Of a stretch of 64,000 nt of DNA, positions 893 through 52,570 are shown piece by piece; position 1 is the stretch's first letter; each line of letters begins with the position of its first letter. Source of the stretch: Massalongia carnosa. Its lineage: Eukaryota. The notes under the pieces are model-generated. The model had not been told where the DNA came from. It did no database searches and was given only the letters and a program-made list of their open reading frames with translations. Location of the stretch: NCBI GenBank assembly GCA_965645245.1, contig OZ287082.1:1612001-1676000 (forward strand). The letters run 5' to 3'. Both the position numbers and the translations under genes were made by a program.

Positions 893-1581
893 AAAACGCT
901 GAGCGTCAATCATTTGCGGAGGCCGAGCCCACCCCGTTTCTTCCTTCCATAACCCTTTCACTTACGTTTCAGGACACTTACGTTTCAGGGCAATGCTAAT
1001 TTTGCTCAACAGAAGTCTTCTTCACTTCATTCCCGACTCGCAAAGAGTGATGATCAAGCATGTTGACTAAAGACCGCAAATGCCAAGTCAGCGCTATTAG
1101 TGCTGTTGGAATACTCGCTTAGCCCCATTAGTTCTAGCTCAGCCCTGCAGGCTGCCATACTGCTATAAGCAGTCACCTCTGTAGTAATTTCAACATTATG
1201 CCGTCAACTGTTTATTTAACAAGTGCGAGATAGGCGCATGGTTCGGGTTACTTGCTGGCTGAAGGGTTTTGCGGATACAGTCTGAAACGTGGCCAGTAAG
1301 GAGGAAACCAGCGGGGACTGGGTGTGATATATCTGTACTGTGTACATGTGTCTCGAGACTTCGTTAATCAGACTTGTTGCACAGAGGCCAAGGTTGAAAC
1401 TCGTTGTTTAGTTATGTTTCAGGGATTACTTATCTTCTCAAGTGAAAAGTCCCATTATCGTAGTTCTTCTTTCTCTCCGCTTGATTCATTAATCCTTTCT
1501 GTGCTGTTGTCGGTTTATTATGCTTTGTATCGTTTGTGATCGGTTGCTGACTTGTTCTGCTTTCGTCTTTTCCTCTGAAGC

Positions 1582-1871
1582 TGTTGAAATAGTTATATTA
1601 CTATGGGCTATATGGCTATGATAAAATGGTATGTATGACCGTGATGTTAAAAATGAAGAGTACTGTTCAGCAGTCTTTGTCCCATAACTGGTCACCCTCT
1701 GCTAAGCGAGGTGATAAGATTATCCGAGCCGATCTTATCTAATCTATAGGCTAAGCCTAATACGGCATCTACGGTTTCTGTAGGTGCTCTGTCCATCTTG
1801 GGCAGTCGTAGGTGCTATGTTCAATGAACTGATAGGTGTTCACTGTACTGGTAGGAGTTGAATATTCAACA
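1582..1871 (+). mobile_element. Solo LTR (family X)
   Basis: TGTTGAA...TTCAACA termini with 5-bp TSD GAAGC on both sides; homologous to 1986-2257 and 46352-50941. Confidence 0.92.
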
Positions 1872-1985
1872 GAAGCATTGCCTAAAATGCAAATGTAACA
1901 TCTCTCTCTCTTACTGAAGACAATATATTAATAACGATCAAGTTCGCATTACTCTCCGCTACTTCATGATTCTACATAGCTATGA

Positions 1986-2257
1986 TGTTGAAATAGGTAT
2001 ATTACTATGGCTATATGTCTATGTAATAATAAAGGTATGTATGAGCGTGATGTTAAGGATGAAGAGTTGCTATGCAGCAATCTTTTCCTATTACTGGTCA
2101 CCCTTCTAAGCGAGGTGATCTTATCTTATCTTGGGACTAAGCCTAATGCGGCATCTACGGTTTCCGTAGATCATCTGTCAATCTAGGGCAGCCGTAGGTG
2201 CTATGTTCATTGAATTGATAGGTGTTCATTGTGCTGGTAGGAATTGGATATTCAACA
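1986..2257 (+). mobile_element. Solo LTR (family X)
   Basis: TGTTGAA...TTCAACA termini with 5-bp TSD TATGA; internal hairpin atctacgg-ttt-ccgtagat. Confidence 0.92.
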
Positions 2258-2667
2258 TATGATTTTCATCTAAATATCTCCCGACTAATTCTACTCTCAA
2301 TGCTTTAAATCCAGGATTGATTTCTCGAACTCTCACGATTTTGGCCAGAGATATTATATTCGATTTCTGAACTACGTTAGATAAAAGCATTAAAACAAGC
2401 CTTTTTCTATTACTCCAAATCCTTTTGAAAAGTTCAACGCGGAAAAAATAATAACCTTCAAGGAGAAATGGCCAGAAATCAAGCAAGCCGAACGATAGGA
2501 AAGCATCGCTAATCTGCTACGCTAGGATTTCTCAATTACAAGCTCCTGCGTTCTCAGAATGTCTCGCGCTGCGCCTACTTCTCTCGAGAAGAAAATAGGA
2601 GACTGATTTGAAAGCAGCTGTATATGAAACATCGCCGTTGTAATAATGATTGATAAAGGACTTGATA

Positions 2668-3112
2668 TCAAGAAGATTTCATGGCTGCCTCCAGCAACTG
2701 TAAGCCCCTATCGTGAGATTTCCTCAATACCTGCAGCGAGCTGTCTTCCACGTTCATGTTCTCTCCTTCATCCTCTTCCACGTTCATGTTCTCTACTTCA
2801 TCCAACAACCACTGCATCGTCTTCTCGTAACCTTCCCTCGATGCCTGCAGCGAGCTGTCGTTGACGTTCACCCCGTTATTCAACAAAAACTGCACTGCTT
2901 TCTCGTGATATCTCGATGATGTACTCAGTAATACGATATCGTCAATTTCCCAATTGTATCTCAATCTGCACTGTATTATCCTTTTGTGACCTTCCGACAA
3001 TGTCATCACCAGCAACTTGTGGTTAACACCATTTTTCAACAACAACTGCATCACCTTCTCTTGACCTTACATGCATGCCTTCTGCAGCGCGCTATCGTTA
3101 ACTACCGCTCCG
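2668..3112 (-). pseudogene. Degenerate ankyrin-repeat tail beyond the NLR stop codon
   Basis: A shifted frame after TAA 3113 reads [30 protein letters not shown]...HEKAVQFLLNNGVNVNDSSLQASREGYEK. Confidence 0.65.
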
Positions 3113-6100
3113 TTATATCAACAGCTGCACCACCTCTGCATGACCTTTCGATGATGCCCCCTGCAGCGCGTTGCCATACTCTCCGCCTTGCGCGTTCATG
3201 TCCGCTCCGCTGTTCAACAGCAATTGTACGATTTTCTCGTGACCTTCGTGCGATGCCCCCTGCAGCGGGTTGCCATAGTATCCGCATTGCGCGTTCACGT
3301 CCGCTCTGCTGTTCAACAGCAACTGCCCGATTTTCTCGTAACATTCGTGCGATGCCGCCTGCAGCGCGGTGTCATACTCTCCGCCTTGCGCGTTCACGTC
3401 CGCTTCGTTATTAAACATAAACTGCACGATTTTCTCTGGACCTTCGTACGATGCCGCCTGTAGCGCGTTGCCATACTCTCCGCCTTGCGCGTTCACGTCC
3501 GCTCCGCTATTCAACAGCAATTGCACGATTTTCTCGTGACCTCCGTGCGATGCCGACTGCAGCGCGTTGCCAAAGAATCCGCCTTGCGCGTTCACGTCCG
3601 CTCCGCTGTTCAACAGCAACTGCACGATTTTCTCGTAACCTTCGTGCGATGCCCCCTGCAGCGCGGTGTCATACTCTCCGCCTTGCGCGTTCACGTCCGC
3701 TTCGCTGTTCAACAGCAATTGCACAATTTTCTCGTGACCTCCGTACGATGCCGCCTGCAACGCGTTGCCAAAGAATCCGCCTTGCGCGTTCACGTCCGCT
3801 CCGCTGTTCAACAGCAATTGCACGATTTTCTCTGGACCTCCGGACGATGTCGCCTGCAGCGCGTTGCCATACTCTCCGCCTTGCGCGTTCACGTCCGCTC
3901 CGCTGTTCAACAGCAATTTCACGATTTTCTCGTGACCTTTGTGCGATGCCCCCTGCAGCGCGTTGCCATACACCCCGCCTTGCGCGTTCACGTCCGCTCC
4001 GCTGTTCAACAGGAATTGCACGATTTTCTCGTGACCTCCGTGTGATGCCGCCTGCAGCGCGTTGCCAAAGAATCCGCCTTGCGCGTTCACGTCCGCTCCG
4101 CTGTTCAACAGCAACTGCACGATTTTCTCGTGACCTCCGGACGATGCCGCCTGCAGCGCGTTGCCATAGCCTCCGCCTTGCGCGTTCACGTCCGCTCCGC
4201 TGTTCAACAGCAATTGCACGATTTTCTCGTGACCTCCGGACGATGCCGCCTGCAGCGCGCTGCCATACTCTCCGCCTTGCGCGTTCATGTCCGCTCCGCT
4301 GTTCAACAGCAACTGCACGATTTTCTCGTGACCTCCGGACGATGCCGCCTGCAGCGCGTTGCCATACTCTCCGCCTTGCGCGTTCATGTCCGCTCCGCTG
4401 TTCAACAGCAACTGCACGATTTTCTCGTGACCTCCGGACGATGCCGTCTGCAGCGCGTTGCCAAAGCGTCCGCCTTGCGCGTTCACGTCCGCTCCGCTGT
4501 TCAACAGCAATTGCACGATTTTCTCATGACCTCCGTACGATGCCGCCTGCAGCGCGTTGCCATAGTCTCCGCCTTGCGCGTTCACGTCTGCTCCGCTGTT
4601 CAACAACAATTGCACGATTTTCTCGTGACCTCCCGATGATGCCCCCAGCAGCGCGTTGCCAAAGAATCCGCCTTGCGCGTTCACGTCCGCTCCGCTGTTC
4701 GACAGCAATTGCACGATTTTCTCGTGACCTCCGTACGATGCCGCCTGCAGTGCGTTGTCATAGCCTCCGCCTTGCGCGTTCACGTCCGCTCCGCTGTTCA
4801 ACAGCAATTGCACGATTTTCTCGTGACCTCCGTACGATGCCGCCTGCAGCGCGTTGTCATAGCCTCCGCCTTGCGCGTTCACGTCCGCTCCGCTGTTCAA
4901 CAGCAATTGCACGATTTTCTCGTGACCTCCGTACGATGCCGCCTGCAGCGCGTTGTCATAGCCTCCGCTTTGCGCGTTCATGTCCGCTCCGCTGTTCAAC
5001 AGCAATTGCACGATTTTCTCGTGACCTCCGGACGATGCCACCTGCAGTGCGTTGCCATACTCTCTGCCTTGCGCGTTCATGTCCGCTCCGCTGTTCAACA
5101 GCAACTGCACGATTTTCTCGTGACCTCCGGACGATGCCGCCTGCAGCGCGTTGCCAAAGTGTCCGCCTTGCGCGTTCACGTCCGCTTCGTTGTTCAACAG
5201 CAACTGCACGATTTTCTCGTGACCTCCGTACGATGCTGCCTGCAGCGCGTTGTCATAGCCTCCGCCTTGCGCGTTCACGTCCGCTCCGCTGTTCAACAGC
5301 AATTGCACGATTTTCTCGTGACCTTCGTACGATGCCGCCTGCAGCGCGTTGCCATAGCGTCCGCCTTGCGCGTTCACGTCCGCTCCGCTGTTCAACAGCA
5401 ATTGCACGATTTTCTCGTGACCTCCGGACGATGCCGCCTGCAGCGCGTTGCCATATTCTCTGCTTTGCGCGTTCATGTCCGCTCCGCTGTTCAACAGCAA
5501 TTGCACGATTTTCTCGTGACCTCCGTACGATGCCGCCTGCAGCGCGTTGTCATAGCCTCCGCCTTGCGCGTTCACGTCCGCTCCGCTGTTCAACAGCAAT
5601 TGCACGATTTTCTCGTAACCTCCGTACGATGCCGCCTGCAGCGCGTTGCCATAGCGTCCGCCTTTCGCGTTCACGTCCGCTCCGCTGTTCAACAGCAATT
5701 GCACGATTTTCTCGTGACCTCCGTACGATGCCGCCTGCAGCGCGTTGCCATAGCCTCCGCCTTGCGCGTTCACTTCCGCTCCGCTGTTCAACAGCAATTG
5801 CACGATTTTCTCGTGACCTCCGTACGATGCCGTCTGCAGCGCGTTGCCAAACACTCCGCCTTGCGCGTTCACGTCCGCGTCGCTGTTCAACAGCAATTGC
5901 ACGATTTTCTCGTGACCTCCGGACGATGCCGCCTGCAGCGCGTTGCCAAAGTGTCCGCCTTGCGCGTTCACGTCCGCTCCGCTGTTCAACAGCAATTGCA
6001 CGATTTTCTCGTGACCTCCGGACGATGCCGCCTGCAGCGCGTTGCCCAAGTGTCCGCCTTGCGCGTTCACGTCTGCCCCTTCCTTCAATAAAATCATGAT

Positions 6101-8962
6101 AATGAAAAGATGACCGTATCGACTGGCAATAAGCAGTAATGATTCATTATTGTTATTACGTGTCTCGACATCGAAAACGGCCGTTTCCCACCAATCGAAT
6201 ATGATATTGTTGAATCCGAACGCTGACATTGCCAGTAAAGTTAAAGAAGATGGACTAATATCATGACGAACTTTATTTACCAGACTAGTATCAAACACCT
6301 GCATATAATTAAAATATTTCATAGTTTTATCCTTGTCTATTATTTCATGCCAACTCTTGTACGCTGGGCTGCTTTCGTTGAAGGATCCAAGGAATTGCTT
6401 TAAAATTATCGTTAAACGAGAATCAATCCTTCCTTTATCATGATTTTTTATGTGATCTGCCCAATAGAATCTTGCGTAGCGAATAATGTCATCGAGTTCT
6501 TTGTTTTCGTCTTGCAATTCGGTATCCCGTTTTTGCTGAACTGAATCATTCAACAAAGACAAACATACTTTCGCTATTAGAGCATTCGCGTCATGGTATC
6601 CCCAGTATTTTTCCAGATATTCCTGAACTGATAAGTGGGAAAATCGACATATATCTAGCTTAGAATCAACGACGATTAAGTTTTGGCAAGCGTCGAGAAC
6701 AAAACCGATCTCGACATCCACAGGATCGACGACGTCCGTGTTGGGATCTTGACAAACCCCAGCGACTAAAGCTTCTGGCGATAAGGGGATAACGGAATAC
6801 ATGATCCATTGAAATGCACGATTGGCAATTTCGGGCGCACTTCCGTCTTGAGCCTTAATTCTGCGATATATTTCGTCATATGCCGCATCAAGGTCCTTCG
6901 GAAGTTTGCCTAGTCGCTCTTCAATATCGCGTCTACGGGGCGGAAGTTTATGGAGTTGAATAATCTGCAGAGACGCCCACTGAAACCTATTCTACTCTTA
7001 GAAAATCAATGCTAGTGGCCGACAGTTATAGAAACTTACATTCCGTCACTTTTGCTCACCAACGTCTCGGAGATGAGCTCTCTAAGTTCGGAACTTATCT
7101 TGCAATACCATTCCTTTTTATCTTTGATCTTGTCGTCAACAAACTTTGCTATGTCCTTCTCATTATCCGTTGCCCTGATTTCCATGTTTGGTCCACCACT
7201 AAAGCGGTGTTTGATATCTAGGTCTGGCCTGCTCGAGATGAAAATTTTTACCAAGTTAGAAGACTTGCCGCTTACCAAGATGTCTAACATTTCCATGAAA
7301 GGGGCCCTCGTTTCCTTGTTGCACTCATCCAAAGCGTCCACAACTAACGTGATTTGAGGATAAATTTCAACTAGCTGACGTAGAAGATCAAAACTTTCCT
7401 CAATCTTGAGCCCTCCTGAGGCAAAGGCATTTCTCTGCTTCAAATCATAACTTTCAACGATCGGACGCCGAATCTTATTGGTTTTTTCGACTCCTGATAG
7501 TTGTCGCACAAAGCTGCTCATGATTAATGTTGGGTCTTGACGATTAGGCTGATTGCGATCGCAATAAAAGTAAGCCAGCGCTTCGTCATTAGGTTGCTCG
7601 GCAAATGTTTTAATCAAGTCGTCGACGACTGTTGACACAAGTTTAGTTTTGCCAGCGCCAGCTAATGAACACAGTCAGTAAGAAATGCTAGATATTGTAT
7701 ATACACTTACGCATTCCGTGTAGCCATAATATTGTAGATGCGCTAGACGCACGCCATTCTACATGTCGTTCATGATTCAGCAGCCACTTTCCTGTTCCTT
7801 TTGTCCATCCTTTGCGAGCAACATAGTGGATTTCCTCGTATGGAATGTCGGATACCCAAGAAAGTATTTTATTTCGCTTGTCCACTTCATATTCATCGCT
7901 CAAAGCACTCACTCGAGGATCGACGCGCAAGATTGGACTTCTCAAGTCTTCAAATAAGCTCTTTAGCTTCATATTTGCCTCTCGATCTTGTATGCGATCC
8001 AAATTTCTTGCCTCCGTATCTACTTGGGTTTCTAAGTCCTTACAACTCTCAACAAATTCGAGAACTTTCGAACGCAACACACTCCCCAGAGTTCGAGATA
8101 CAGATCCTTTATCATATAATTTCTTCGCACAGGCGAGGAATCTTAACACAACGAGATACAAGGCTGTCAACGCCGTTGTCAAGTTCTCCATAGCAAGTGT
8201 GGACGGTCCGGATACCTCAGAAGAAAGGTAAAGGAGTTCATATACTGTGCACCGATTGATAAGTTGCGTCACCTTCTCTCCCCCAACAAGTAAAGCTGCC
8301 ATCAACTCGCTTTCTCCCACCGCCATCTTTTTCAGAGTTAGATCTTTTCAAGATCATGTCAAAGGAAGATCCAATCTCACCTGAAGCAAAAACCTAACTC
8401 CCGCCCATGGCAACGCAGCATGAACAGGATCAAAATTTACCGCGACGTCTCCAATTTCCTTGAATTTGTTGAGCCCAAAGATAATTTTCTCCGCTAAATC
8501 GCGAAGTATGATTTCTCGGCCTTGGAAACAGAATTTCCATTGCTTTTCGCGGCATTCATCTCTTTTCTGCTGAACAACACCGTGTAATTGTTCCACGATC
8601 TCTAGTTTTGAATTCAAGGATGTCTGTTGAACAGCCGCTCTGTCTTCTGATGATAGTTTCTGCAGCGTTATGTCCCAGAGACTACTCCGAACATTCAGAA
8701 CTTGCGCACCCGCTGAAGAAGATGTTTTGATCGATCTCGCCTCTTCAGTTGAATTCGGAACCGATCCGGAGCCCGTGTTCACCTTGACAGCTGATGTCGG
8801 AATAGAGGCAGAATCAGGTTTCGTTGATTGTGATGTGGAAGATCCTTGCACTGAAATTTCACTAGAGTCCTGTTTTGCCTTATTAGCCTTGTGACTAAAC
8901 AAGGACCTCAATCGCTCCCGTTTCCTTTCACGCGAAGAGCTTTCCATCGAATCCTGCATCAA
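3113..8962 (-). CDS. NLR-like protein 1: helical NWD/Goodbye-like N-terminal domain, NACHT, ankyrin repeats (4 exons)
   Basis: Exons 8962-8381, 8326-7711, 7661-7040 and 6986-3113 joined by GT-AG introns. Splicing rebuilds Walker A HGMPGAGKT and [11 protein letters not shown]; Walker B is [10 protein letters not shown]-terminal [16 protein letters not shown] motif is typical of fungal NACHT proteins. Confidence 0.92.
3120..6090 (-). repeat. 30 tandem 99-bp (33-aa) ankyrin repeats with high internal conservation
   Basis: Counted 30 copies of [33 protein letters not shown] units nearly identical. Confidence 0.95.
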
Positions 8963-40093: not shown

Positions 40094-40679
40094 CTCGATT
40101 TATGAAAGGATTGAGATGATGTTTGAGTCGAGCAAAGTGGAAGAATCTGGCAAAAAGTGACTGACTATTGTGGATTGATGAACATGTGAAACTCTGCTAA
40201 ACACGAAAACCAAATTGCCTTTACCGCATTTCTAATCCAACACGTTCTTTAGGAAACCGGATACCCCATGATTGAATCCGGGTTGCTTGAGCGAGCTGAT
40301 GAGACAGTAAGATTTATAGTCATCAAAGTTAGACCCGACGTAAGTGGTCTTATCCCTCTCGCTGGTACACGGGCATCCCCCCCCCCCCTTCAAGCTAACC
40401 ATTGTTGGCTAGAAAGTGCTAAATCTTAAAATATCTACTCAATCAGTTTGAACTTGACTGATCCTATTTACAAGAAGTACAAATTTTCAACTACTTCAAT
40501 TATTCGTCTCAATTCATATGAATAACTTTTCAACAGCTAGATTTTCTACAGCAGGACCTGATTTAATGACAATCTTCACAAGTTCATGTAATCTGAACAT
40601 TTCTTCGTATTCTTTTCCGTTCATTAACATTTCTTTTCCAATCATTGACTTTTCTTTTCGTCTCGAAAATCGTGCCAGA

Positions 40680-43600
40680 GGGTTTGAGAAAACTCGACTG
40701 ACCGCATAGGATCCGATGTTTCGATCGTCTAACTTGACGGTGGGTCTCGCTGTCTGAAGATTCTTTGTGTTTAACCATACCATATCACCCACTTTATAGC
40801 GGGGGCATGGTCGGCGGTTTGCATTGGCAGTGGATTCATAGATGGCTTGAGCGATTAACATTTCATCATGAAGATGAGTTTCTAAGTCTCTCATCCTGTC
40901 CGCGAACTTACTAGCTGCGATCAGATTATTTCGACTTTGAGCGGTAATGTCCGTCGGGAGAGGCTCGGAGGGTTCGAATCCTATACGGGGGTGTTGACCA
41001 GAATTTGCTAGAAATGGCGAAGCAAGAGTTGTGGAAGAGTCCGTATTATTAGCCGCGAATTCGGCGCCTGGTAGCCACTTGGCCCAATCATCCTGCATAT
41101 GGTTGACATAGGCTCTAAGGTAATGCTCCATGGAGGCGTTGGCTCGTTCTGTCTGGCCATCGGTTTCCGGGTGGTATCCGGTGGACAACCGTGCGTCGAT
41201 TTTTAGCCGCTTACACAGCAATTCCCATAGTTCCGATACGAACTGCTAACCTCGATCTGATACGAGAACATCAGGTAGGCCATGATGCTTCCATACATTC
41301 TGATAAAAGGCATCTACGGCTTCTTCGACTTCCATGGATGTGACTGGAGCCAGATGGCGCATCTTGATTAGGCGATCTATGAAAACTAGAATGTACCGAT
41401 AGGTGATTCCCATGAAGGTGCTGGCCGAGAGGGGTCCGACATAATCCATAGCAACATCGCGCCAGCGACGCTCAGGTGGAGGTAAGGGCCTAAGCCACCC
41501 CTGATAACGTTCACGGGAGGGTTTGGCTCTTTTGCAGACATGGCAGTTTCTGACGAATCGTTGCACCGTTTTGTGCATGCTAGGCCACCAATAAGAGCGA
41601 CTGATGAGTTCATAACATTTGGCACGGCCTGGGTGTCCACCTGCGACACTATTGTGAGCGAGTTGTAGGATTCTTAGGCGAAGGCTATCTGATTTGGGTA
41701 CGTATTGTCGATTTCTGAAGTACAAAATCCCATTTCTGTCTTCGCACTCTACTAGTTGTATACCGCTATGATATCTCGATCCGTTTCGAAGCATTTCTAG
41801 AACACGGGGTGAAAACTTATCTCTATCCAGGGCTCGGTTCCAAAGGTCCTGAGTGGCCACGTCCATTGGGTCATCGTCGGGGTTTAGCTGATCAGTAACT
41901 AAGTCTAGTTGTGGTTCTTCATGATCCGTCTCTGTGTCATCATCCTCGTCAAGATCTTGTTCTTGATCAAGAATAGCAGGAGCGAGCACTATGGGGTCTG
42001 GGGAGGTTCTAACCACGGTTGAATTGAAGCTCTCGGCTACTCCGTCGTCTAGGTTATGCGTTTTCAGTATCGTCTGATGCTGAAATGAGTTCCGCTCATC
42101 GGTTTCATCCCCTTCTTCAGGGAGGTCTCCTAACCGTCGAGTTAGGGCATCCGGTTTACCGCCGGCTATCCCAGGTCGGTAGACTATCTTATAGTCGAAT
42201 CGAGATAGAAACTCACTCCATCGAGCCTGGCGCCAACTCAAAAGCTTGGTAGAGGTGAAATATTTCAGGTTCTTATGGTCTGAAATAACATCGATGGGTT
42301 GGGCGGAGCCTTCTAGTTCAGGTCTCCATTCCTCGAAAACTCGAACTACAGCCATGAGTTCTTTGTCATAGATCTCATAGTTACACTCGGCATGGTTATG
42401 CTTTTTCGAGAAGTATGCGACGGGACGCAAGATATCTTTTTCATCATATTGCGATAGGATACCCGCCGATACAAAGTCGGAGGCGTCCGTTTCGACCACG
42501 ATTTTCTTGTCTGGATCAAAGTGCATGAGAATAAGATCGGAGGTAAATGCTTTTTTCATCGTATTGAAGGCTTGCTGACAATCGCTAGTCCAGGCGAATT
42601 TCCCTTCTTGGTTAGGTTCGTCAACGGCGAGGCTATTTTACTGAACCCCAATACGAAATGCCTGTAGAAATTGGCGAATCCTAGGAAAGCTTTGAACATC
42701 CCTAACGTTAACGGGCGCAGGCCAATTGATGACGGTATCGATCTTGGCAGGATCCATCTTGACTCCCTTAGTAGTGACGATGAGACCCAAATAGGGGACC
42801 TCGGTGACTCCGAAGGCGCACTTGGTGATGTCCGCTTGGAGTCCGGCCTCTCTGAGTTTGACAAGGACTTGTTTTACATGTAGGTCATGCTCGATTTCGT
42901 CATCACTATAGATGAGGATGTCATCTAGATACGCGGTGCAGAATCTATCTAGGTATTCCCTCAGGGTGTCATTGATATAATGTTGAAACGAGGCAGGTCC
43001 GTTGCACAGACCGAAAGGCATGACAAGAAATTCGTAGAGACCGAAACGAGTCCGGAAAGCAGTAAGTTCTTCGTCTCCCTCTTTGATTCTCAGGCGATTG
43101 AATGCTGATATAATATCCAACTTGGTAAATATCTTGGCTTTGCACAAACGGTTGAGGTCTCGGTGATTAGAGGTATTAGATAACGATTTTTTATGGTGAC
43201 AGCGTTTAGTCCTCGGTAGTCGACGCAGAATCGAAGTCCTCCGCCGGGCGTCTTAACAAACATAACCGGGGAGACTGCATGTGAGCGGCTAGATCGAATG
43301 AATCCTTTGGTGAGATTCTCATCTAGATAACGATGAAGTTCCTGGATCTCATCACGACTCATCCCGTAAAGAGCTTGATTAGGTGGTTGCAAACCTTCTT
43401 TTAAGACGATGGCGTGATCATAGGAGCGGTGTTCCGGTAGTTTATCGGACTCCTTTCTGGGAAAGACATCTAGGTAGTCGTGGTGTTGCTTTGGAAGCAG
43501 AGGTGCCGGGACAACGTTCTTTTGCTGCCGAACGTGCTCAAGTTCTTCTTGAGTGACGGAGCTTTCTAGGGTGAGTTCATTGTGGATTCTGCAAATGGCT

Positions 43601-46145
43601 AGGTGCATGTCCTTATCACTTGGACAGGCCTTAGTGTTAAAAGAGGAGAAAACTTGGGTTGCTATTAACTTAATAGATAACCTGGAGCTAGGGCTAGGGG
43701 GTTTTAAAGGCGATTCTATACCTAAGAACTGGTATATTTCTTGGAGGGAGATACTGAATATCTCGTGGTCCTTCTGTCTTGCGAGGCGGTCGAATGTGCC
43801 GGCGCTCACCTCACTGACTCGAAGCTGGGCTGGGTAGGTTGGTGCGGATTCAACCGCGGTTAGTTTACTGGGTAGGGGGTTTGAGGTATGTAGGCGAGGT
43901 GCTAAACGAACGTAGCTCCCGGACCGGTATCGGATCCTAGGGGAGACGTCTTTTTACATGACGGTTAGGATTCGACTGGGACCATCTTCAGCCTGAAAGT
44001 CAAATTTCAATGGTTCTGTTTGACTAGATTGCAGAATGGCTTCTTGATCTTTAGTCTCCCATACCTTCTGACTTTCGGCAGGCATAAGGAACTGTTCTTC
44101 CTCGGCGGTGGTTGAATGAACCATAACGGGGCCGGAACAGCAATGTGCTAGGCAAAATGGGGAGGATAATGACAGGTTATTATTGGCGAAGTTAGTGATA
44201 GCGCCATGTCGACGCAGCCATGGGTGTCCTAGGACGATGGGGTAATGTCTTAATCCGGTCACATATAGGAACAGTTTCTCTATGTGTCCATTGAGATCCA
44301 TGGTTACTTCTACCACATGGGTGATGTTTCCGGTCAGAGCAGGCTGACCATCGAAACCTAGGAGTCGGCGAGGGTATTTAAGGGGGCGAAGGGGGAATTG
44401 ATGAAGGTGCGCGAATTCTTTGTCGATGAATGAGTAACCTGATGCACCACAGTCCACGAAAATTAAAGCTCTTATCCTTGCTTGCAGACGACGTAATATA
44501 CATGAGACAACCATCTGGCTGTCTTTGAAAGTTTCATCGTTTTCAAACAAGGTCAAAGCGGACGCTGCAGAAAACTGAGCGTTGGACATTAGGGGGGGTG
44601 AAAATGATGCAGAAAGGAGACATGCAGAAATCAATAAATCAGACTTTCGAAGCCCTCGTATGCGACTGAATACGGGGGGAAGGCTTTTCCCGCTGCATCG
44701 TCAGATGCGTCGGAGTCGTTGTAAAGGACAAGAGACCGAATAGTAGACGGGGCCTTCTTGTTGGGACAGTCGATTGCGGTCTTCCCAGGGTGCGATTGCT
44801 TACAGTAGAAGCATAGTCTCCATTGCTCGCAGATTTCCTTGACTCCGGGGACTTTCAGGCATTGGCCCTTACAGCGGCCATGGCGGAGCTGAGGTCTATC
44901 GGATCCCCTGCGGGAAGAGAAGGAACCGCAGCAGGGGTGACGGCTGGAGCGACGACGATGATGGAGGAGCGGGGGGCAGGACTCCTGACAACGGCAGTGG
45001 TGGTGGCGACGGATGCCCCATTTTTAGTTGAGGAGTTGCTAATTGATGCTCCAGAGACTTGGTGTGGCGAGATATGCCTGATTTGACGAATTTTCAATCC
45101 GTTTGGGGCCCACATTGCAACATGTTCGTCGAAGGTGACGGGCTCCTGGTTGGTTCCGGGGATTCGATAATGGATGGCCGCTGTTTGGGTGGTATAGTTG
45201 ATGTTGGCCTTCATCGCATCGATGAGGGAGGCGTCTTCCATTCTAGATCGTTCCTTCTTCTGAGAGAAAAGGTTGTAATATTCCTCAAAGGTTAGGTTAC
45301 CCTGTTTCAGGGTGTCTCGCAAATATTCACGGGCATCCTCTTGCTCGAAAGGGTTACCACAGGCCAGACGAAGTTTCGCTCTCCAGTCCGAAATCGAGGT
45401 TGGGCGGCATAAGCCATCTATCCGGTATGGAGTCATGAGCAGATGGGCTCGCTTGTTGATGGTGAGTCTGCTCTCCGCATAAGCTATCTTAGCCTCATCG
45501 GAAAAGTATCGGTCATGGTTAATGTGCATTTTTTGAATTAGATTCTGTTCCCAAGCATCGAGTTTGTCCTCGTCACCGTCATACTCCGGTATGTCAGGAA
45601 GTTTCTCGGACCTGGGCGGAAACGCTGGTCGTTTCATTAGCTGTTCTATAATGGCGGCCGGAACGGAAGGAGAAGGATTTGATGACGGGGTTGCCAATAA
45701 TGGGTTGGAAGACGTTTGATTAATGGCTGGAGGAACCGCGTTTCGAATCTCAGCTAATTGTCGTTCCAGGTCTCGATAGGCGGCGATGAACTCGTCCGGG
45801 TTATTGCTGACATGTTCTCGCTCCTTTTGGGCTACCTCAGATTCCTGAGGCAGATTTGCGGTTTCTTCTTGAAAAGACATGATTAACAAACGTTATAGGG
45901 GATAGAGAAAACAAAGAAACACTTGAATGTAGGTCGGACGTAATTTCACGGACAAGGTCCAGATAGGGAGATATGCAAGAGTTACTATCAGAAAGCTAGG
46001 TCTAGGGATAGTATAAAAGACGTCCGACGAAGAGCTCCAAACACCTGAGAAGCCACATAGGTTTTATAGCCATGCAGTCACGGCAAGAGAGCCTGTTAAA
46101 TACTAACCCGATCAGGAAACGTGGGAGCGAGGTAATTCCATGACA
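40680..46145 (-). mobile_element. Decayed Ty3/Gypsy retrotransposon, 3'-truncated
   Basis: Gag 45889-44855; [63 protein letters not shown]. Frameshifts and stops present; 5' LTR at ~45944-46145; no 3' LTR. Confidence 0.92.
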
Positions 46146-46819
46146 TAAACATCGAAGAACGTCTTTTTACAGCGATGACACGATTTACAGAAAACGAATT
46201 TGAACTCTTACTTCGTCGAAAGTCAATCATTTCAGAAATTCGAGAAATCGTCGACGAATTAAAGATAATTGAATTTTTAATTATTGAAAATCTTCGACAA
46301 CTGAAGACATGAATAAAGCACGACGCACGACGCGCAAATCGTGTTTGATATTGTTGAAATAGGTATATGACTATGGCTATATGGCTATGTTCTATGACCC
46401 TTATCGGTGCCGTTACCTTCGCTTGCGCTGGGAGGGGCTTTTAATTGGATGAATTGATTTGAATGCTTGAATTTGATTGGGCATGGGAACGACACAGGTC
46501 AGCCCGGGCAGGCCTAGGCACGTGACTCGGGGTCGGTGCTGAGGTGAGAACCTCATCTTCTAGGCCCGAGGCGTCTGCTGACGCTCAACGATCCGATAGA
46601 TGATGCCCGACGGCAGTGCCCGACGGCGATGATCTAGATGGAGGTGCCCGGCGGCGCTCCGGATCGATGCCCTGGTTGACCTGTACGCCCAATGGAATGC
46701 CCAATTGAGTAGGGGTAGGAGTTTGTAGGATTCGTCTCGGCGACGACAGCACGTGGGACTGCCAGAGGGATGCCTTTTTGAAAACTGAGGTTCAAATTGA
46801 ATAGTGAGGCCTGGGACGT

Positions 46820-47797
46820 CTAAAAGTATAGCTGAAACGCGTTTGATGACCATCTTCCGAGTCTCTGAATACTCTCGTCCAGCATCCCGTGGTCGGCGGC
46901 GTGTTGTGCTGCTCCTTTTCTGAAGCTGTGTCCCGAGTATGCCGAGTCGTTGATGCCGGCGGCTATCAGTCTCTTTTTCAGGGATGCTATGACGGAGGCT
47001 CTGGTGAATGCGGTGCCGAGACGAAAAAGCGGGGATGTAGATGGCTGAGGATCATTTCTGAAAAGACGCCGTAGTGCTGTCACGGGGCAAGTGCTCTCAT
47101 TGGTCGCTGCCAGCACTATCTGAACTCCTGAGTGATTTGTGTCTGTTTTGCTTCTTTTGAGACGTAATGTCGCGAATTGATCGTTCTCGGCGAATGAGAT
47201 GTCACCTCGTGTAGGTTTCAATCTCTGAAAAGATGTCTTCTTACGATCGGCGACAGTGTAGGTGATTTGCCCGAGTCTGAGGAACCCTGCCCATGCAACT
47301 TTGAATGTCGCGTCGATGTTGAGGTCTTCGGCCGAATGAGCGGGAATACTGGTGATTTTTGTCAGTAATTCTTTTGAAATGGGTAGGCGTCTTCTTTTTG
47401 TCTGAGAAAAGATCCTTTTCCCCCCTTTCAGCATCAATTGAAGTCTCGGCCCCTCGAATGGGGTGAGGCCGTATCCTCGGTCTACATGGTATGATCTGAG
47501 GCCGGCGAGGTAGCTCGCTGCCGTCTCTGGTTTTATCTTTCCCTGCTTGGGTGTGCCGCCCCCGTATAGTCGACCGGCTAGCCATTCCTCGAGGGACTCG
47601 GTTGTTGCAGGCCACGACGTGCGTCCCGTCGTCGCGCAGAATGCCTCGTATGAGTCGATCGCCGTCCCGTACCCTTTTCTCGTGTCCGCCGAGTGTCCGT
47701 GCCAGACGAGGCGTTTTACCAGGGCTGACCCTGGTGTGGAGGATAGGTAGGTGGAGGGAGGTTCATCGAATTGTATGGGTTCTGCCAATGAGGGCAA
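46820..47797 (-). CDS. Tyrosine recombinase
   Basis: AGFLR, LKRSKTD, TCPV, GHSFRKG, LGRWSS and LY cover the catalytic R-K-H-R-W-Y set. The TAG may be premature, since the frame continues TSQASLFNLNLSFQKG. Confidence 0.92.
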   Translation of the reverse strand: MPSLAEPIQFDEPPSTYLSSTPGSALVKRLVWHGHSADTRKGYGTAIDSYEAFCATTGRTSWPATTESLEEWLAGRLYGGGTPKQGKIKPETAASYLAGLRSYHVDRGYGLTPFEGPRLQLMLKGGKRIFSQTKRRRLPISKELLTKITSIPAHSAEDLNIDATFKVAWAGFLRLGQITYTVADRKKTSFQRLKPTRGDISFAENDQFATLRLKRSKTDTNHSGVQIVLAATNESTCPVTALRRLFRNDPQPSTSPLFRLGTAFTRASVIASLKKRLIAAGINDSAYSGHSFRKGAAQHAADHGMLDESIQRLGRWSSNAFQLYF

Positions 47798-49418
47798 AAG
47801 TTAGCCAATCTTTCATCATCAAAACGTGACAGGGCATCTGCTAGTCCATTGGAAGTGCCACTGATCCATTGACAACGTAGTACGATGTCCCACTTTGCAG
47901 CTATGGACAGTATTTCTCGTAGAGGCGCGTTGGCCGGTCCCTTGAGGGTTAGATTCGTGAATCCTGTGTATGCTGTGTTGCTGTCGGTAAAGACAAGGAT
48001 CTGTCGATGTCGCCATGTCGGCGCCCATTTCTGAAGGATTAGAAGGATAGCCTCGACTTCTCGGACGTTTATGCTCGGTGATTCTTCCTGATTGAGGACT
48101 AGGACTCGGGCCTACATGCGTTTTTTTGATTCACGAGCTCGTTGTCTTGTTGAAAATAGCCTCCGAGACCCGTGAGGCATGCATCCGTATGCACCTTGAT
48201 CGTGTCTCGTGTTGACGTCTCGAAGAAGACAATACCGTTGAAGTCCACTAAAAGTTTGTTCCACCAGATGAGATCCTGTCTGACCCATGTGGGAATTCTT
48301 CTTTTGACCCGACGATGACTGCCCGAGGGAAATGAGGCTATAAAATTCCAGAATAATCGTAAGAAGACTCGGCCCAATTTGACTGCCTGTGCGCAGAAGC
48401 TTAGGAAGCCCGCTATTGACTGCATGTCGCCGAGGCTGATTGTCGTCTCGTTTAGTGCCTTTGTAGTGATGATTCTCGCTTTTTCCAGCTTGTCCGCTGG
48501 CAGACGAATAAGACTGTTGATGGTGTCGACCTCGAGTCCGAAGACTGTCGCTGTCGTTCTCTCGGCGTCTTTTGAGTCGTTTCTCGGGATGCCGAGAATG
48601 TCGGTGAGAATGTTGTAGGCTTTTGTTTCTTGGTGCAATCGTTCTGACGATGTCTCGGATGGGAAAATTGCAACGAAGTCGTCTAGATAGTGATGTAATC
48701 TCCATTGTAGAAAGGATTCCAAAATCCAATGAAAGCCTTCCGCAAAAAGATTGAAGATGAACGGGGCCGTCGACAGTCCGAACGAAAGGCATGTCTCGGT
48801 GTAGAATTCGTCATTCCATCCGCAACCCAGAAGCCATTGATGATGAGGTGCGACGGGAACGTTTCGAAAGGCGTCTTTGACGTCTCTTTTCACTATGACA
48901 GCACCTTTGCCCTCTGACAGAATCAATTGAATAATGTCGTCGAGTCTGGCGTATTGTAATTTGGATGCCTCTTCTGGAATATTGTCGTTGACTGATGTTT
49001 GATTGGGATGAGACAGATGATGAATGCGTCGCCATCCTCCGTCATGTTTCGGGACCAAGCCGAGGGGGGAGGCCACAAATGGCTGACTCGGGGCGGCTAT
49101 TCGTCTGACTCGGCCCTTCCTGAGGTCCTCTTGAAGCTTATTCTCGATCGTTTCCGGGTCCTCATTCGCTGATGTCAGATTTTTTTCGATCCGAAGGATG
49201 TCTGTGGGGCCTTCGTATCCGATTTGTACTCCGAAACGAAGGATCATGGGCAGATGGACTCGGAGGGGGCCCGGATACTCTTGAAGTAGGGTTGCCCATG
49301 CGGACGGTACGAGGGGAGATGGGCTGTCTTTCAAACGCTGACGAGATGCGTCTACGAGTTGAAACGAAGGGATTGTATTTGGTCTGATTGGTGCAGGTAA
49401 GCAGGGATGGGACGTCAT
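47718..49418 (-). CDS. DIRS/Ngaro-type RT-RNaseH with one frameshift near 48110
   Basis: SPLGLVPK, WRRIHHLS, DVKDAF, LSFGLSTAP, HYLDDF; RNaseH HTDAC, then in the shifted frame INVRE, FTDS, LADALSR. Confidence 0.9.
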
Positions 49419-49463
49419 GAATTCAGCTATTGAAGCTATTCTACTGCCTCCTGCACCAACCCC

Positions 49464-50477
49464 CTATTTCTTCGTTGGGCATGTCTTCTGGCCATGCCCA
49501 GCCACGCCGCACGATTTGCATTTGTGCTGTCGGTAGCACGACGGCCAGGTGCAGGTGCCGCTGTTGTACTTGTCGCAGATTTCCCCCGCTGCCTTCTCGG
49601 CCCTCTCGGCCCTGTCTCCTCTCGGGGTCGGTCGTCGGGACGGCGGGGATCGTGAGCGGCGACGGCGTAGGACTGTGAGGGGGGTGCAGAATCGAGCTTG
49701 GAATTCGTCGGGCATTTTCCATTGGGATGCGTCGGATGGCTGAGACGCGATGATGTGGGTGTGGGTTTCGATGGCGAGGGGGAGGACTGCTTCCTGCCAC
49801 TCGTACACCTTGGCCAGCGTGAGGATTTTTCCGTGGAATGCCGACATGGTGGCGTGAAGCTGTTGACTCGATTTCCCGAAAAGACTGACCATGATCGAGG
49901 TGTAGTTGATGAAGCTCTCGGTCTAGACGTCATGAACTGTCTTTCCGAAATCTTTGTAGGTCCCGGATGCCTTTCTCAACCTCAAGGCGCCGTCTTCGAT
50001 GCCGATGCGGTCTTGATCCTTGTATGACTCGTATTGCATGCCGTGCATGTGTCGGAGGCGGGAGAGGTTGATGGCTTTGAATTTATTTGAAAAGATCTTG
50101 ATGATCTCGTCCTGTGGTAGGCCCGCGAAACGGGGTGCTATGCTTCTTACTTCGAGAGGGATCTCACCTAGGTCCTCGTCGTCATCGCCGACGACACGAC
50201 TCGGCTTGCCAGCAGGAATGACGGCCGCTATTCGGGCGTCAGATTCTCGGCGCATGCAGTCGATTTCTAGCTGCATTTTTTCCACCTCCTTCTCGGCGAC
50301 CAATGCCTTGGACTCGGCAATTCTAGCCTCAGCCTCGGCCGCCTTCGCTTCCGCCTCGGCTTTCTTCTTTTGTAGGGCGAAGATTTGATTGGATTGGGCC
50401 TGCGTCAAGCCGACAATCTCCTAGGGGTCGGGGACTATGTCGTCCATCAAGGTGCTTTGGGAACGGGTGTTCGTCAT
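49464..50477 (-). pseudogene. Gag-like ORF1 of the YR element with two in-frame TAG stops
   Basis: ATG at 50477 is in frame with ORFs 50408-49923 and 49892-49464; coiled coil; C-terminal CDKYNSGTCTWPSCYRQHKCKSCGVAGHGQKTC zinc fingers. Confidence 0.8.
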
Positions 50478-50994
50478 TGGGAGGTAGGGGCACCGAGACA
50501 ACGTGAGGTCGACGACGAGTCAGTGAGATTGGAAAAGCAGCAAGCACTGACAGCGAGGTAGGGGCACCGAGACAACGTGGGGTCGACGACGAGTCAGTGA
50601 GATGGATGAGGCCGAGTGAGAAGAAGTGAATGAGGAAAGAATTTTCAGAGGGTGATTCTTAATTTACTTTGACTCAGGGGCCTCACGTGACATAGAACCA
50701 TCTCAAATAATAAAGGTTTGTATGACCGTGATTTTAAGGATGAAGAGTTGCTAGGCAGCAATCTTTTCCTATTACTGGTCAACCCCCTTCTAAGCGAGGT
50801 GATCTTATCTTATCTTGGGACTAAGCCTAATGCGGCATCTACGGTTTCCGTAGATGATCTGTCCATTTAGGGCAGCCGTGGGTGCTGTGTTCATTGTACT
50901 GATAGATGTTCATTGTACTAGTAGGAATTGGATATTCAACAGATATGCTTTAGAATTTAAAGAGAACATACACGATTCGATCATTTGTGTTTAA

Positions 50995-51209
50995 TGTTCA
51001 ACTTCTACCAGCATTGCCTAGCCGATAGATTAGATAAGATCAGATCTAATCTAATCGCATAGAGGCTCGGATAAACTATTATCATCTCGCTTAGCAGAGG
51101 TGACCAACATACGCAGATTGCTCTGCACTCCGTAGCAACTCTGCATCATGGTCATACAGGCCCCTATCTTTACATAGTCATATAGCCATAGTCATAGACC
51201 TATTCAACA
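50995..51209 (-). mobile_element. Diverged family X-related LTR, reverse orientation
   Basis: Reverse complement begins tgttgaataggtctatgactatggctatatg and contains gtcacctctgctaagcgag; left boundary uncertain. Confidence 0.7.
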
Positions 51210-51705: not shown

Positions 51706-52570
51706 CTAGAACAAAACCCGTCTTGCAGCCTGTATACCTGTGATGTCCCATTTTTTCGGCGCGGTACGGTCCATCCACACTTGCCAATCTTTATAGCCAT
51801 ACCCAGGTCGCATAATGTTAGCATACTCCCAATAATCTGGATACCATCCAGCCGCTTCCCAGTCGAGAATGCCAATAATGCGATGGGTTTCGTCCACCAT
51901 AATATTTCGTGGAGCTATGTCGCCATGTGTGAAGACAGAGATATCGGAGCGAGGAAGCATGCTAGGAAGCTCCTTAGCATACTTTCGGCCACCATAGTGT
52001 AAATAGCGTTCTTCTATGCGGGCTCGTAAGGCAGTGTCATTGAGAAGGGGTGTCGGAGGGTTGCTGAGATCTTGAATGAGCGGATCATAGGTAGGTGAGC
52101 CGTCAGCAGAGCATTGGAAGAGGTGGCCTAGCTCAGCGGGCTGTGGAATCTGTCGCAACATCGCACTTATATCCCATATTTCACGGCAGACGCGCTCCTT
52201 TGTATGCTCATCAAGCCCGTTCCATGAGGGCAGAAGGGGCGAACCTGAAACCATTGTCATGCCTAAAGTGCCCCCATCGGAATTGTACGCCGAGAAATAA
52301 TATCGGGAATCGGAATGTCCGTGTATTGCTTCACAAGCCTCATGGCCACTTCTTCAGTTCGCCGAACTCTATTGCCAGATTTGGAGACAAGAGAGCTGTC
52401 GAGCGCTAGGACTATAGCTCCGCCCATCTTGCTCAGGACGCGTATATCATCAGCTGATGAGCATAACGTGGAGGGTTCGACGAGTGCAGAGCCTATATGG
52501 GTGTTAACGCTCACCAGGATGGAGTTGTTCGAGGGAGAAATTAGTACTAGAATTGGACATTTTGCAGATG
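51706..52570 (-). pseudogene. APH/choline-kinase-like phosphotransferase, frameshifted
   Basis: EEVAMRLVKQYTDIPIP, FTHGDIAPRNIMV, ILDWEAAGWYPDYWEY; frame break near 52290. Confidence 0.8.

Follow-up and report, generated by a model that had tools for sequence, protein, structure and literature searches.

A probable Ngaro-like tyrosine-recombinase retroelement inserted in an LTR and a candidate recombination site predicted at its joined ends

The window, i.e. the whole 64-kb stretch of DNA that was analysed, carries a tyrosine-recombinase (YR) retroelement of 4315 bp on its minus strand, of which no further copy was found within these 64 kb. Its ORFs follow each other on one strand in the order gag, RT-RNase H and YR (Table 1). 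The identification as a YR retroelement, already made in the initial annotation, was borne out by the RVT_1 match on the minus strand and by the relatives that were found, 422 for the RT and 350 for the YR. The catalytic residues of the recombinase (R175, K218, H291, R294, W317 and Y325) show no variation across an alignment of 30 sequences and are intact here, while a PDB sequence search with the YR returned only a weak match to Cre, located at the C-terminus (E 1.2). No methyltransferase could be identified between RNase H and YR, and no Dam-like Pfam match was obtained; there is no room for such a domain, because the pol frame, which ends at 47716, overlaps the YR frame, which starts at 47800.

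Table 1. Features of the retroelement and of the host LTR that it interrupts, in window coordinates. L004 and L005 are related loci, X6 is a public sequencing run.
Feature	Position	Strand	Remarks
Whole retroelement	46391..50705	-	Alignment with sibling LTR; empty-site joints in 3/4 runs; second copy with the same ends
Host LTR, left part	46352..46390	+	95% identity to sibling over 39 nt; LTR start backed by loose ends before 46352
Host LTR, right part	50706..50944	+	92% identity to sibling over 239 nt
Left arm CATAGA, final 6 nt of the sense strand	46391..46396	-	CATAAA in L004, directly before spacer
3' untranslated region	46397..46819	-	429 nt including left arm; fold z -2.85
Tyrosine recombinase ORF, 326 aa	46820..47800	-	Phage_integrase (Pfam) 0.0023, below cut-off; overlaps end of pol
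RNase H part of pol ORF	47716..48111	-	RVT_3 (Pfam) 0.006, below cut-off; out of frame
Reverse transcriptase	48099..49463	-	RVT_1 (Pfam) 5.5e-12; YLDD at 48678-48689
gag-like ORF	49464..50447	-	CCHC knuckle at 49479-49520; no Pfam match
Two 49-nt repeats, 98% alike	50481..50603	-	50481-50529 and 50555-50603, within a 74-nt duplicated leader unit
5' leader hairpin	50598..50705	-	Sense nt 1-8 pair with 101-108, nt 20-27 with 93-100
Right arm TCTATG, sense nt 10-15	50691..50696	-	TTTATG in L004, TCTATC in L005
Spacer TGAGATGGT, sense nt 1-9	50697..50705	-	TGGGAATGT in L004, TGAATTGGT in L005; unchanged in X6 copy

The window copy, located inside the LTR, is dead. Two TAG stops, at 50421-50423 and 49923-49925, interrupt its gag-like ORF, and 1 nt is missing from pol at about 48110. 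Contigs of the sequencing runs have a G at 50423 and a C at 49924 in other copies, giving CAG and TGG instead of the stops, and other copies also carry an extra C behind 48110. An intact RT-RNase H protein of 567 aa (P0001), with 99% identity to the window RT, reads through the latter position, and a second protein, P0121, appears to be an intact recombinase of the same family. The clusters of P0001 (59 members) and P0121 (54 members) are large and 99% identical to the window copy, and the family can therefore be regarded as young and successful. In the protein atlas, a basidiomycete 'DNA breaking-rejoining enzyme' family forms the nearest feature cluster, and the host of the element is probably a basidiomycete. 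A metagenome scan with a single protein query yielded only two distant loci with 25-27% identity, and a scan of viral contigs for relatives yielded none. Five loci were found by the genome-contig scan, all of them on fungal-type contigs inside bacterial MAGs; when the same MAGs were searched with the non-coding ends of the element, nothing was found beyond those contigs. Such fungal copies of the family, binned into bacterial MAGs, can serve as a contamination flag.

The insertion point was fixed by alignment of the interrupted LTR with a sibling LTR at 1980-2262, and the break lies after ...ctatgt and before aataataaagg. For three of the four public runs, Logan contigs of the empty site (two in X1, eight in X4 and one in X6, 11 in total) connect 46390 directly with 50706, without a single shared letter. 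Therefore neither a TSD nor microhomology is present, in agreement with the earlier claim that the element has no TSD; this joint was not found in the X5 contigs. Run X6 also contains a second insertion with other flanks, whose flanks reach the element at 46391 in one contig and at 50705 in a second, and contigs of X4 and X5 likewise stop matching the element at 50705. The ends that had been derived from the sibling LTR are thereby confirmed and now exact, and the other copy, for which an extension past them had to be considered, ends at the same two places; neither end of the window copy is truncated. The 3' end is visible in only two insertions. Next to the 3' end, an arm-like CTATG/CATAG motif is seen in both of these, and the 5' flank is AT-rich in three out of three insertions, L005 included. 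The initial annotation had further described the target as a solo LTR. That the LTR is split is evident from the sibling alignment and the empty site, but its solo state is unproven, as a Ty3/gypsy-type gag-RT-RH-IN array on the minus strand (40514-45892) adjoins it.

Repeats that might link the ends to each other or to the interior were searched for throughout the element. Direct repeats fall into 41 families, and only one of them, the 49-nt leader pair, is longer than 26 nt; the longest of the 42 inverted pairs has 25-nt arms with 76% complementarity, and no pair among the 25 listed of these 42 links the extreme termini. With blastn-short, the last 150 and first 150 nt matched within the element only themselves, the leader repeat just named (over 48 nt) and stretches of at most 12 nt. 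Split direct repeats, with A1 at the 5' end and B1-A2-B2 at the 3' end, were not encountered in the window copy, and the ends of the X6 copy coincide with those of the window copy. Nor was a DIRS-type arrangement found, with ITRs and an interior stretch complementary to each tip, the terminal inverted repeat being just 6 bp long. For the window copy, the reported lack of a long ITR/ICR and of split direct repeats is thus upheld by the repeat search and by blastn-short. An 8-nt match of the joined ends, in inverted orientation, to the 3' UTR was discarded as lying at about chance level.

The 230-nt leader is predicted to fold with -56.7 kcal/mol (z -3.56), and none of 200 shuffled sequences was equally stable. 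Other copies carry a single leader unit, as visible from a joint in X4 (50462 to 50535) and from a loose end in X6 before 50535. The 49-nt leader repeat shows complementarity to nt 1-8 and, at 13 of 15 positions, to a 15-mer ending 13 nt from the 3' tip. It was considered as an internal complementary region and rejected: the 3' tip itself is not reached, and L004 and L005 have no counterpart. We read this complementarity as part of the leader hairpin or as chance. A primer-binding site (TGG, sense nt 6-8) was also dropped, not being conserved in L004.

What the two ends do share is the terminal inverted repeat of 6 bp, TCTATG at 46391-46396 and CATAGA at 50691-50696. Arms of 8 bp around a 7-nt spacer had been proposed earlier. 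Inverted arms are present, but they measure 6 bp and the spacer 9 nt, as the GT at 46389-46390, inside GTTCTATG (46389-46396), belongs to the host LTR; the X6 copy has CA at this place. Joined ends are predicted to read CATAGA, the 9-nt spacer and TCTATG, with the break at the boundary of left arm and spacer. Taken alone, the 6-bp arms are weak evidence (p about 0.05), since an inverted repeat of 6 bp, lying no further than 20 nt from either end, was also present in 5.3% of 20,000 random internal 20-mer pairs; they are strengthened by the relatives. The 8-mer GTTCTATG is not enriched, with four occurrences in the window against 1.99 expected, and at least four in 12 of 100 shuffles. These figures would fit a reading in which the terminal hexamers arose by chance and the element is an ordinary degraded copy of DIRS order, whose ends would be uninformative on a recombination site.

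Against this stands the related locus L004, which shares 45% RT identity with the window element and no alignable non-coding DNA. It contains an uninterrupted 21-nt site, CATAAA / TGGGAATGT / TTTATG, at 4538-4558, with the same 9-nt spacing and in the homologous place, following the YR stop at 4285 and preceding the gag start (at about 300 of the contig, whose ends overlap circularly). By manual count, 16 of 21 positions are the same as in the window site, including six of nine in the spacer, and the G>A change in the left arm is matched by a C>T change in the right arm, so that the palindrome is kept. L005 begins with TGAATTGGTTCTATC directly after unrelated AT-rich DNA, and its spacer TGAATTGGT agrees with that of the window at seven of nine positions (manual count). 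L003 has AAACATA-N8-TATGTTT at 2943-2964, in the same relative place. The pattern CATARA-N5-13-TYTATG is absent from the 64-kb window (0.15 expected) and occurs in one of seven loci. In favour of chance, the non-coding parts of the more distant L006, L007, L012 and L013 hold no site motif within three mismatches, the sole match of this kind in L006 falling in coding DNA on the antisense strand. At the termini, no variant letters are seen among the 40 listed of 48 differences in four runs, which speaks against chance. Altogether, chance is an improbable source of the hexamers. The joined ends form a compact att-like site with inverted arms, conserved in relatives with co-varying arms, and this is probably the site of the recombinase. 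The earlier proposal of such a site gains support from its uninterrupted presence in L004 and its conserved start in L005.

The lack of a TSD and the presence of extra letters at one end only would also suit a Tn916-like coupling sequence, carried from the previous insertion site and differing between copies. However, the X6 insertion, with its other flanks, shows 0 differences over 50535-50705; the spacer is identical in this second insertion and therefore not a variable coupling sequence, which settles the question raised before of whether it is fixed. The similarity of the spacers in L004 and L005 also speaks against this reading, which we regard as very unlikely.

On balance, we favour the view that the element is of Ngaro type in unit-length form and inactivated by mutation, its class being assigned from ORF order and domain content. 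The YR would bind both arms on DNA whose 3' end is connected to its 5' end; possible forms are a circle, a tandem and, within a split-repeat copy, the internal junction of B1 and A2. Strand exchange would take place at the spacer edges with a non-homologous target, and replication of the mismatched spacer would keep the 9 nt at one end only, with the target neither duplicated nor deleted. The unit-length copy (A-internal-B) may have lost A2-B2 by recombination of B1 with B2, or may derive from an inserted one-unit circle. In the literature, Ngaro, PAT and VIPER elements are described with A1...B1A2B2 repeats, which many copies lose (PMC9210276, PMC6681497, PMC3783388, PMC8547959); for Ngaro and VIPER, split repeats are reported to be missing from copies and even from consensus sequences of families in which other copies retain them (PMC9210276, PMC6681497), and basidiomycete YR retroelements are classed as Ngaro (PMC3783388). 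The missing split direct repeats are most likely a property of this unit-length copy, and probably not of the whole lineage. The L003 and L004 contigs, as assembled, extend past the junction and break off within the leader (that of L003 about 200 nt past its palindrome; in L004 the first 117 nt recur at the contig's end, the repeat beginning 1 nt inside the right arm). This would fit an assembly path A1-internal-B1-A2, although a circle or a tandem, neither of which needs split repeats, would explain the L004 contig equally well.

Against the Ngaro-type reading, A2-B2 is present in neither of the two insertions with a visible 3' end, where some would be expected if split repeats were the rule. 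This observation favours instead a lineage natively devoid of repeats, with the unit-length element as the functional form and full-length cDNA joined end to end with no terminal redundancy, the joint creating the 21-bp 6-9-6 site and the YR integrating the circle. The exact ends common to both insertions are in line with this, as are the blastn-short result, in which no repeat of more than 12 nt ties the ends to an internal place, the numerous intact relatives in the P0001 and P0121 clusters, and L004, where joined-end DNA exists in a relative. On the other side, the 3' end is seen in just these two insertions, and L003 and L004 stop in the leader past the junction, as split-repeat elements would. 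We also know of no mechanism by which exact ends could be regenerated from RNA without redundancy. Repeat loss from copies is moreover common in known families (PMC9210276, PMC6681497). A joint leading from the 3' end back to the 5' end (46391 to 50705) was not seen among the 15 listed of 53 joints, which is weak evidence either way. We hold such a lineage possible but doubtful. In its specific form, it would be a basidiomycete YR lineage without split or inverted repeats, the 21-bp joined-end site being the sole terminal cis element, and a one-unit circle would have been inserted beside the arm-like CTATG/CATAG motif, the opposite flank being AT-rich and the spacer staying behind at one end; this too we put forward only tentatively. 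The class of YR retroelements circularising without long repeats that the initial annotation had suggested is consequently not established, given two 3' ends, the repeat loss common in known families according to the same sources, and the contigs that stop in the leader.

Among known systems, the element resembles Ngaro-like elements (DrNgaro1 and the fungal Ngaro clades 1-4; Muszewska et al. 2013, PMC3783388) in its order of gag, RT-RH and YR, the lack of a methyltransferase, the overlap of YR with pol, the absence of a TSD, a length of about 4-5 kb and the basidiomycete host range. It differs in that the window copy has no A1...B1-A2-B2 split direct repeats and in its 6-9-6 palindrome at the joined ends, which the Ngaro literature covered here does not mention. 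With DIRS-1 and DIRS-like elements it shares the YR and RT, the lack of a TSD and ends thought to be joined before integration by the YR, but not the ITRs of tens to hundreds of bp, the ICR, the methyltransferase or the gene order. PAT-like and VIPER/TATE elements are YR retroelements as well, and 3' repeats are often missing from the copies and Repbase consensus sequences of these groups (PMC6681497). Complete copies in both groups, however, have split repeats; PAT-like elements also possess a methyltransferase domain, and VIPER/TATE is restricted to kinetoplastids. Cryptons, the YR DNA transposons of fungi and animals, are likewise eukaryotic, mobilised by a YR and without long terminal repeats, whereas the window element contains gag and an RT and is not flanked by a repeat. 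The layout of the candidate site recalls FRT of the yeast 2-micron Flp system and loxP of Cre, in which inverted recombinase-binding arms surround an asymmetric spacer and exchange takes place at the spacer edges. In those sites the arms are 13 bp and the spacer 8 nt long, against perfect arms of 6 bp and a spacer of 9 nt here, which is longer than the 6-8 bp of characterised YR sites and counts against the mechanism favoured above; the target of the window element also has no homology to the spacer.

To our knowledge, no defined DNA site has so far been assigned to the integration step of eukaryotic YR retrotransposons. The exact ends, the empty site, the second insertion and the co-varying relatives together provide a 21-bp candidate site with a candidate cleavage position at the edge of arm and spacer. 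With this candidate site and the apparently intact P0121 recombinase, the site-specific step therefore becomes testable. If the whole family proved to be without split repeats, the currently accepted, repeat-dependent replication model for Ngaro, PAT and VIPER would need an alternative.

The ends of the tyrosine-recombinase (YR) retroelement were mapped by comparing Logan contigs of four coded public sequencing runs (X1, X4, X5 and X6) with positions 46000-51100, and the joints and loose ends mentioned here are among the 15 of 53 and 19 of 343, respectively, that were listed. Alignment with the sibling LTR (1980-2262) extends to 46390 on the left side of the element and resumes at 50706 on its right. 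Position 46390 is joined to 50706 without shared letters in two contigs of X1, eight of X4 and one of X6, and this joint is absent from X5 among the joints listed. These contigs are uninterrupted LTR copies, and therefore the insert is exactly 46391-50705, without target duplication, loss or microhomology. Among the loose ends listed, one X6 contig carries 255 unrelated letters followed by the element from 46391, another follows the element as far as 50705 before 56 unrelated letters, and matches in X4 and X5 contigs likewise end at 50705. Thus, at least one further insertion with the same two ends exists, although the two X6 flanks come from separate contigs and not necessarily from one insertion. 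The possibility considered in the initial annotation, that this copy is deleted, was not borne out for its ends. The target adjoining the 46391 end reads CTATG in the window and CATAGA in X6. In these small numbers, arm-like motifs lie in opposite orientations beside this end in both insertions, and the opposite flank is AT-rich in three of three (window, X6 and the related locus L005).

The interrupted LTR may be the 5' LTR of a Ty3/gypsy-type array directly to its left rather than a solo LTR; a matching LTR at the other end of the array was not found within the window. The host LTR occurs twice more, at 1582-1871 (80% identity to the query) and 1980-2262 (100%), with about 110 nt between the copies. 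An inverted LTR fragment and an APH-family frame follow to the right of the element, and an ankyrin-repeat frame is situated within a GC-rich island (0.56-0.60; window average about 0.45).

Features of the YR retroelement and its neighbourhood
Feature	Position	Strand	Remark
YR retroelement	46391-50705	minus	4315 bp
Leader		minus	258 nt; 5' part in sense
Leader duplication	50481-50603		74-nt unit
Gag-like frame		minus	after leader in sense; CCHC knuckle 49479-49520
RT frame	48099-49463	minus	YLDD 48678-48689; Pfam RVT_1, 5.5e-12
RNase H part	47716-48111	minus	after RT in sense; Pfam RVT_3, 0.006, sub-threshold
Tyrosine-recombinase frame	46820-47800	minus	overlaps RNase H part; Pfam Phage_integrase, 0.0023, sub-threshold
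Tail		minus	429 nt; 3'-most part in sense
Ty3/gypsy-type array	40514-45892	minus	directly left of interrupted LTR
Array, gag-like frame	44855-45892	minus	
Array, RVT_1	42638-43252	minus	
Array, RNase H and integrase zinc domain	41246-42637	minus	
Inverted LTR fragment	51070-51209		72%; just right of element
APH phosphotransferase-family frame	51706-52353	minus	2.3e-13; about 1 kb right of element
Ankyrin frame	3113-6991	minus	1292 aa, almost wholly ankyrin repeats (Ank_2, 2.9e-196)

The gag-like frame had no Pfam match, and a methyltransferase domain was neither matched in Pfam nor has room between the frames. In a large protein collection, 422 of 5818 candidates were RT relatives, the best being P0001, an intact RT-RNase H protein of 567 aa (99% identical, representing 59 member sequences). 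Many RT relatives come from contigs measuring 4.0-4.9 kb, close to the length of one element, which suggests that such elements often assemble in metagenomes as isolated units or cycles. For the YR, 350 of 2613 candidates were relatives, led by P0121 (387 aa, 99% identical, 54 members). When 30 YR sequences are aligned, R175, K218, H291, R294, W317 and Y325 show no variation, and the recombinase frame of the window copy is therefore catalytically complete. The closest feature cluster in a protein atlas was a basidiomycete family.

The window copy itself is dead. Its gag is broken by two TAG codons (50421-50423 and 49923-49925), while every other copy covering these sites in the Logan contigs has G at 50423 and C at 49924, giving CAG and TGG. 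It also lacks one base at about 48110, where an additional C is seen in other copies. Transitions make up most of the changes that separate it from them.

Neither a repeat search nor blastn-short with the joined end regions as query and the element as subject revealed a split direct repeat, long inverted terminal repeat or internal complementary region. Apart from a 49-nt pair in the leader, which belongs to the 74-nt duplication and is single in other copies, the element has no sizeable repeat. This duplication is polymorphic, with one unit in some X4 and X6 copies, and in X5 17 nt are inserted behind 50480. RNA folding pairs leader nucleotides 1-8 with 101-108 (z -3.56).

In sense, the element ends in the six letters CATAGA and begins with the nine letters TGAGATGGT, followed by TCTATG; joined ends would form a 6-9-6 site, which the integrated element breaks precisely at the boundary of left arm and spacer. 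The initial annotation had described 8-bp arms around a 7-nt spacer, with GTTCTATG as left arm. The first two letters of that arm belong to the host LTR, whose sequence up to the break is ...ctatgt; their place is taken by CA in the X6 insertion. Apart from these two letters the observation as a whole is real, and the proposed att-like site gains support from relatives once its arm length is corrected. In the 64-kb window the 8-mer shows no enrichment. Among 20,000 pairs of internal 20-mers drawn at random, 5.3% contain a 6-bp inverted repeat, and the symmetry of the window site, taken alone, is weak support. No palindrome of this kind at Ngaro ends was found described in the literature searched.

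Scanning prokaryote genome contigs with a profile yielded five fungal-type contigs in bacterial MAGs, belonging to different families, with non-coding DNA alignable neither among themselves nor with the window element. These loci (L003-L007, in G001-G003) were binned with MAGs labelled Kribbellaceae, Solirubrobacteraceae and Bacteroidetes, G003 alone having 12 RT matches, and look like eukaryotic contamination. Sequence comparison with these relatives makes the end site credible. Locus L004 (45% RT identity; 4670-nt contig with its first 117 nt repeated at the contig end) carries CATAAA-TGGGAATGT-TTTATG at 4538-4558, between the YR stop (4285) and the gag start, with the architecture and spacing of the window site and 16 of 21 letters matching by manual count. 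Relative to the window it has A for G in the left arm and T for C in the right, a double change that preserves the palindrome. A degenerate pattern, defined after L004 was seen, matches only L004 among seven loci and nothing in the 64-kb window (0.15 expected); by rough calculation its chance in the 534-nt non-coding stretch is well under 1%. In L005 (50% identity), 385 nt of unrelated AT-rich DNA precede TGAATTGGTTCTATC, which marks the 5' end of an integrated element, positioned as in the window. The palindrome of L003 (2943-2964, AAACATA-ATCCGGGG-TATGTTT), about 190 nt past the YR stop and followed by a CT-rich leader-like stretch, is only suggestive as a counterpart. Distant elements (about 36% identity) had no such motif. 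One distant relative, L006, has 66-75-nt tandem repeats (4-6 units, 885-1290) within an open frame (939-3077), just upstream of the RT domain.

According to excerpts of six papers (PMC3783388, PMC4157794, PMC9210276, PMC6681497, PMC13465315, PMC8547959), Ngaro, PAT and VIPER elements are defined by A1...B1-A2-B2 split direct repeats, to which replication is tied. The same excerpts report many copies without split repeats, a DIRS-54_XT consensus lacking repeats that two copies have, Repbase VIPER and TATE consensus sequences without 3' repeats, and isolated A-B units. We lean slightly towards the window element being a unit-length copy of a Ngaro-type family. B1 x B2 recombination would leave such an A-internal-B copy. 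In a relative, L004, joined-end DNA is present, and the contigs of L004 and L003 continue beyond the junction to end after 117 and about 200 nt of leader, respectively, where an assembler would halt if the path forked at the end of A2. However, A2-B2 is absent from both insertions with a visible 3' end among the loose ends listed. This absence would fit a natively repeat-less lineage, which we regard as possible but rather doubtful. The new class without long repeats put forward in the initial annotation is the less likely reading on present evidence; repeat loss is common in known families.

The shared ends are exact and free of duplication, the family has an intact YR, and its conserved, co-varying 6-9-6 site is split at the arm/spacer edge. 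The YR would act on DNA whose 3' end abuts its 5' end, exchanging strands at both spacer edges with a target lacking spacer homology. The mismatched spacer would then segregate at replication, each daughter retaining a single spacer of the element and a single uninterrupted stretch of target. Such segregation would place the spacer at one end only, with no duplication or deletion, exactly as observed. In L004 the terminal repeat starts at the opposite edge of the spacer, one letter into the right arm. As a single case, this is compatible with the segregation model's prediction that some insertions form a second class, carrying the spacer at the 3' end.
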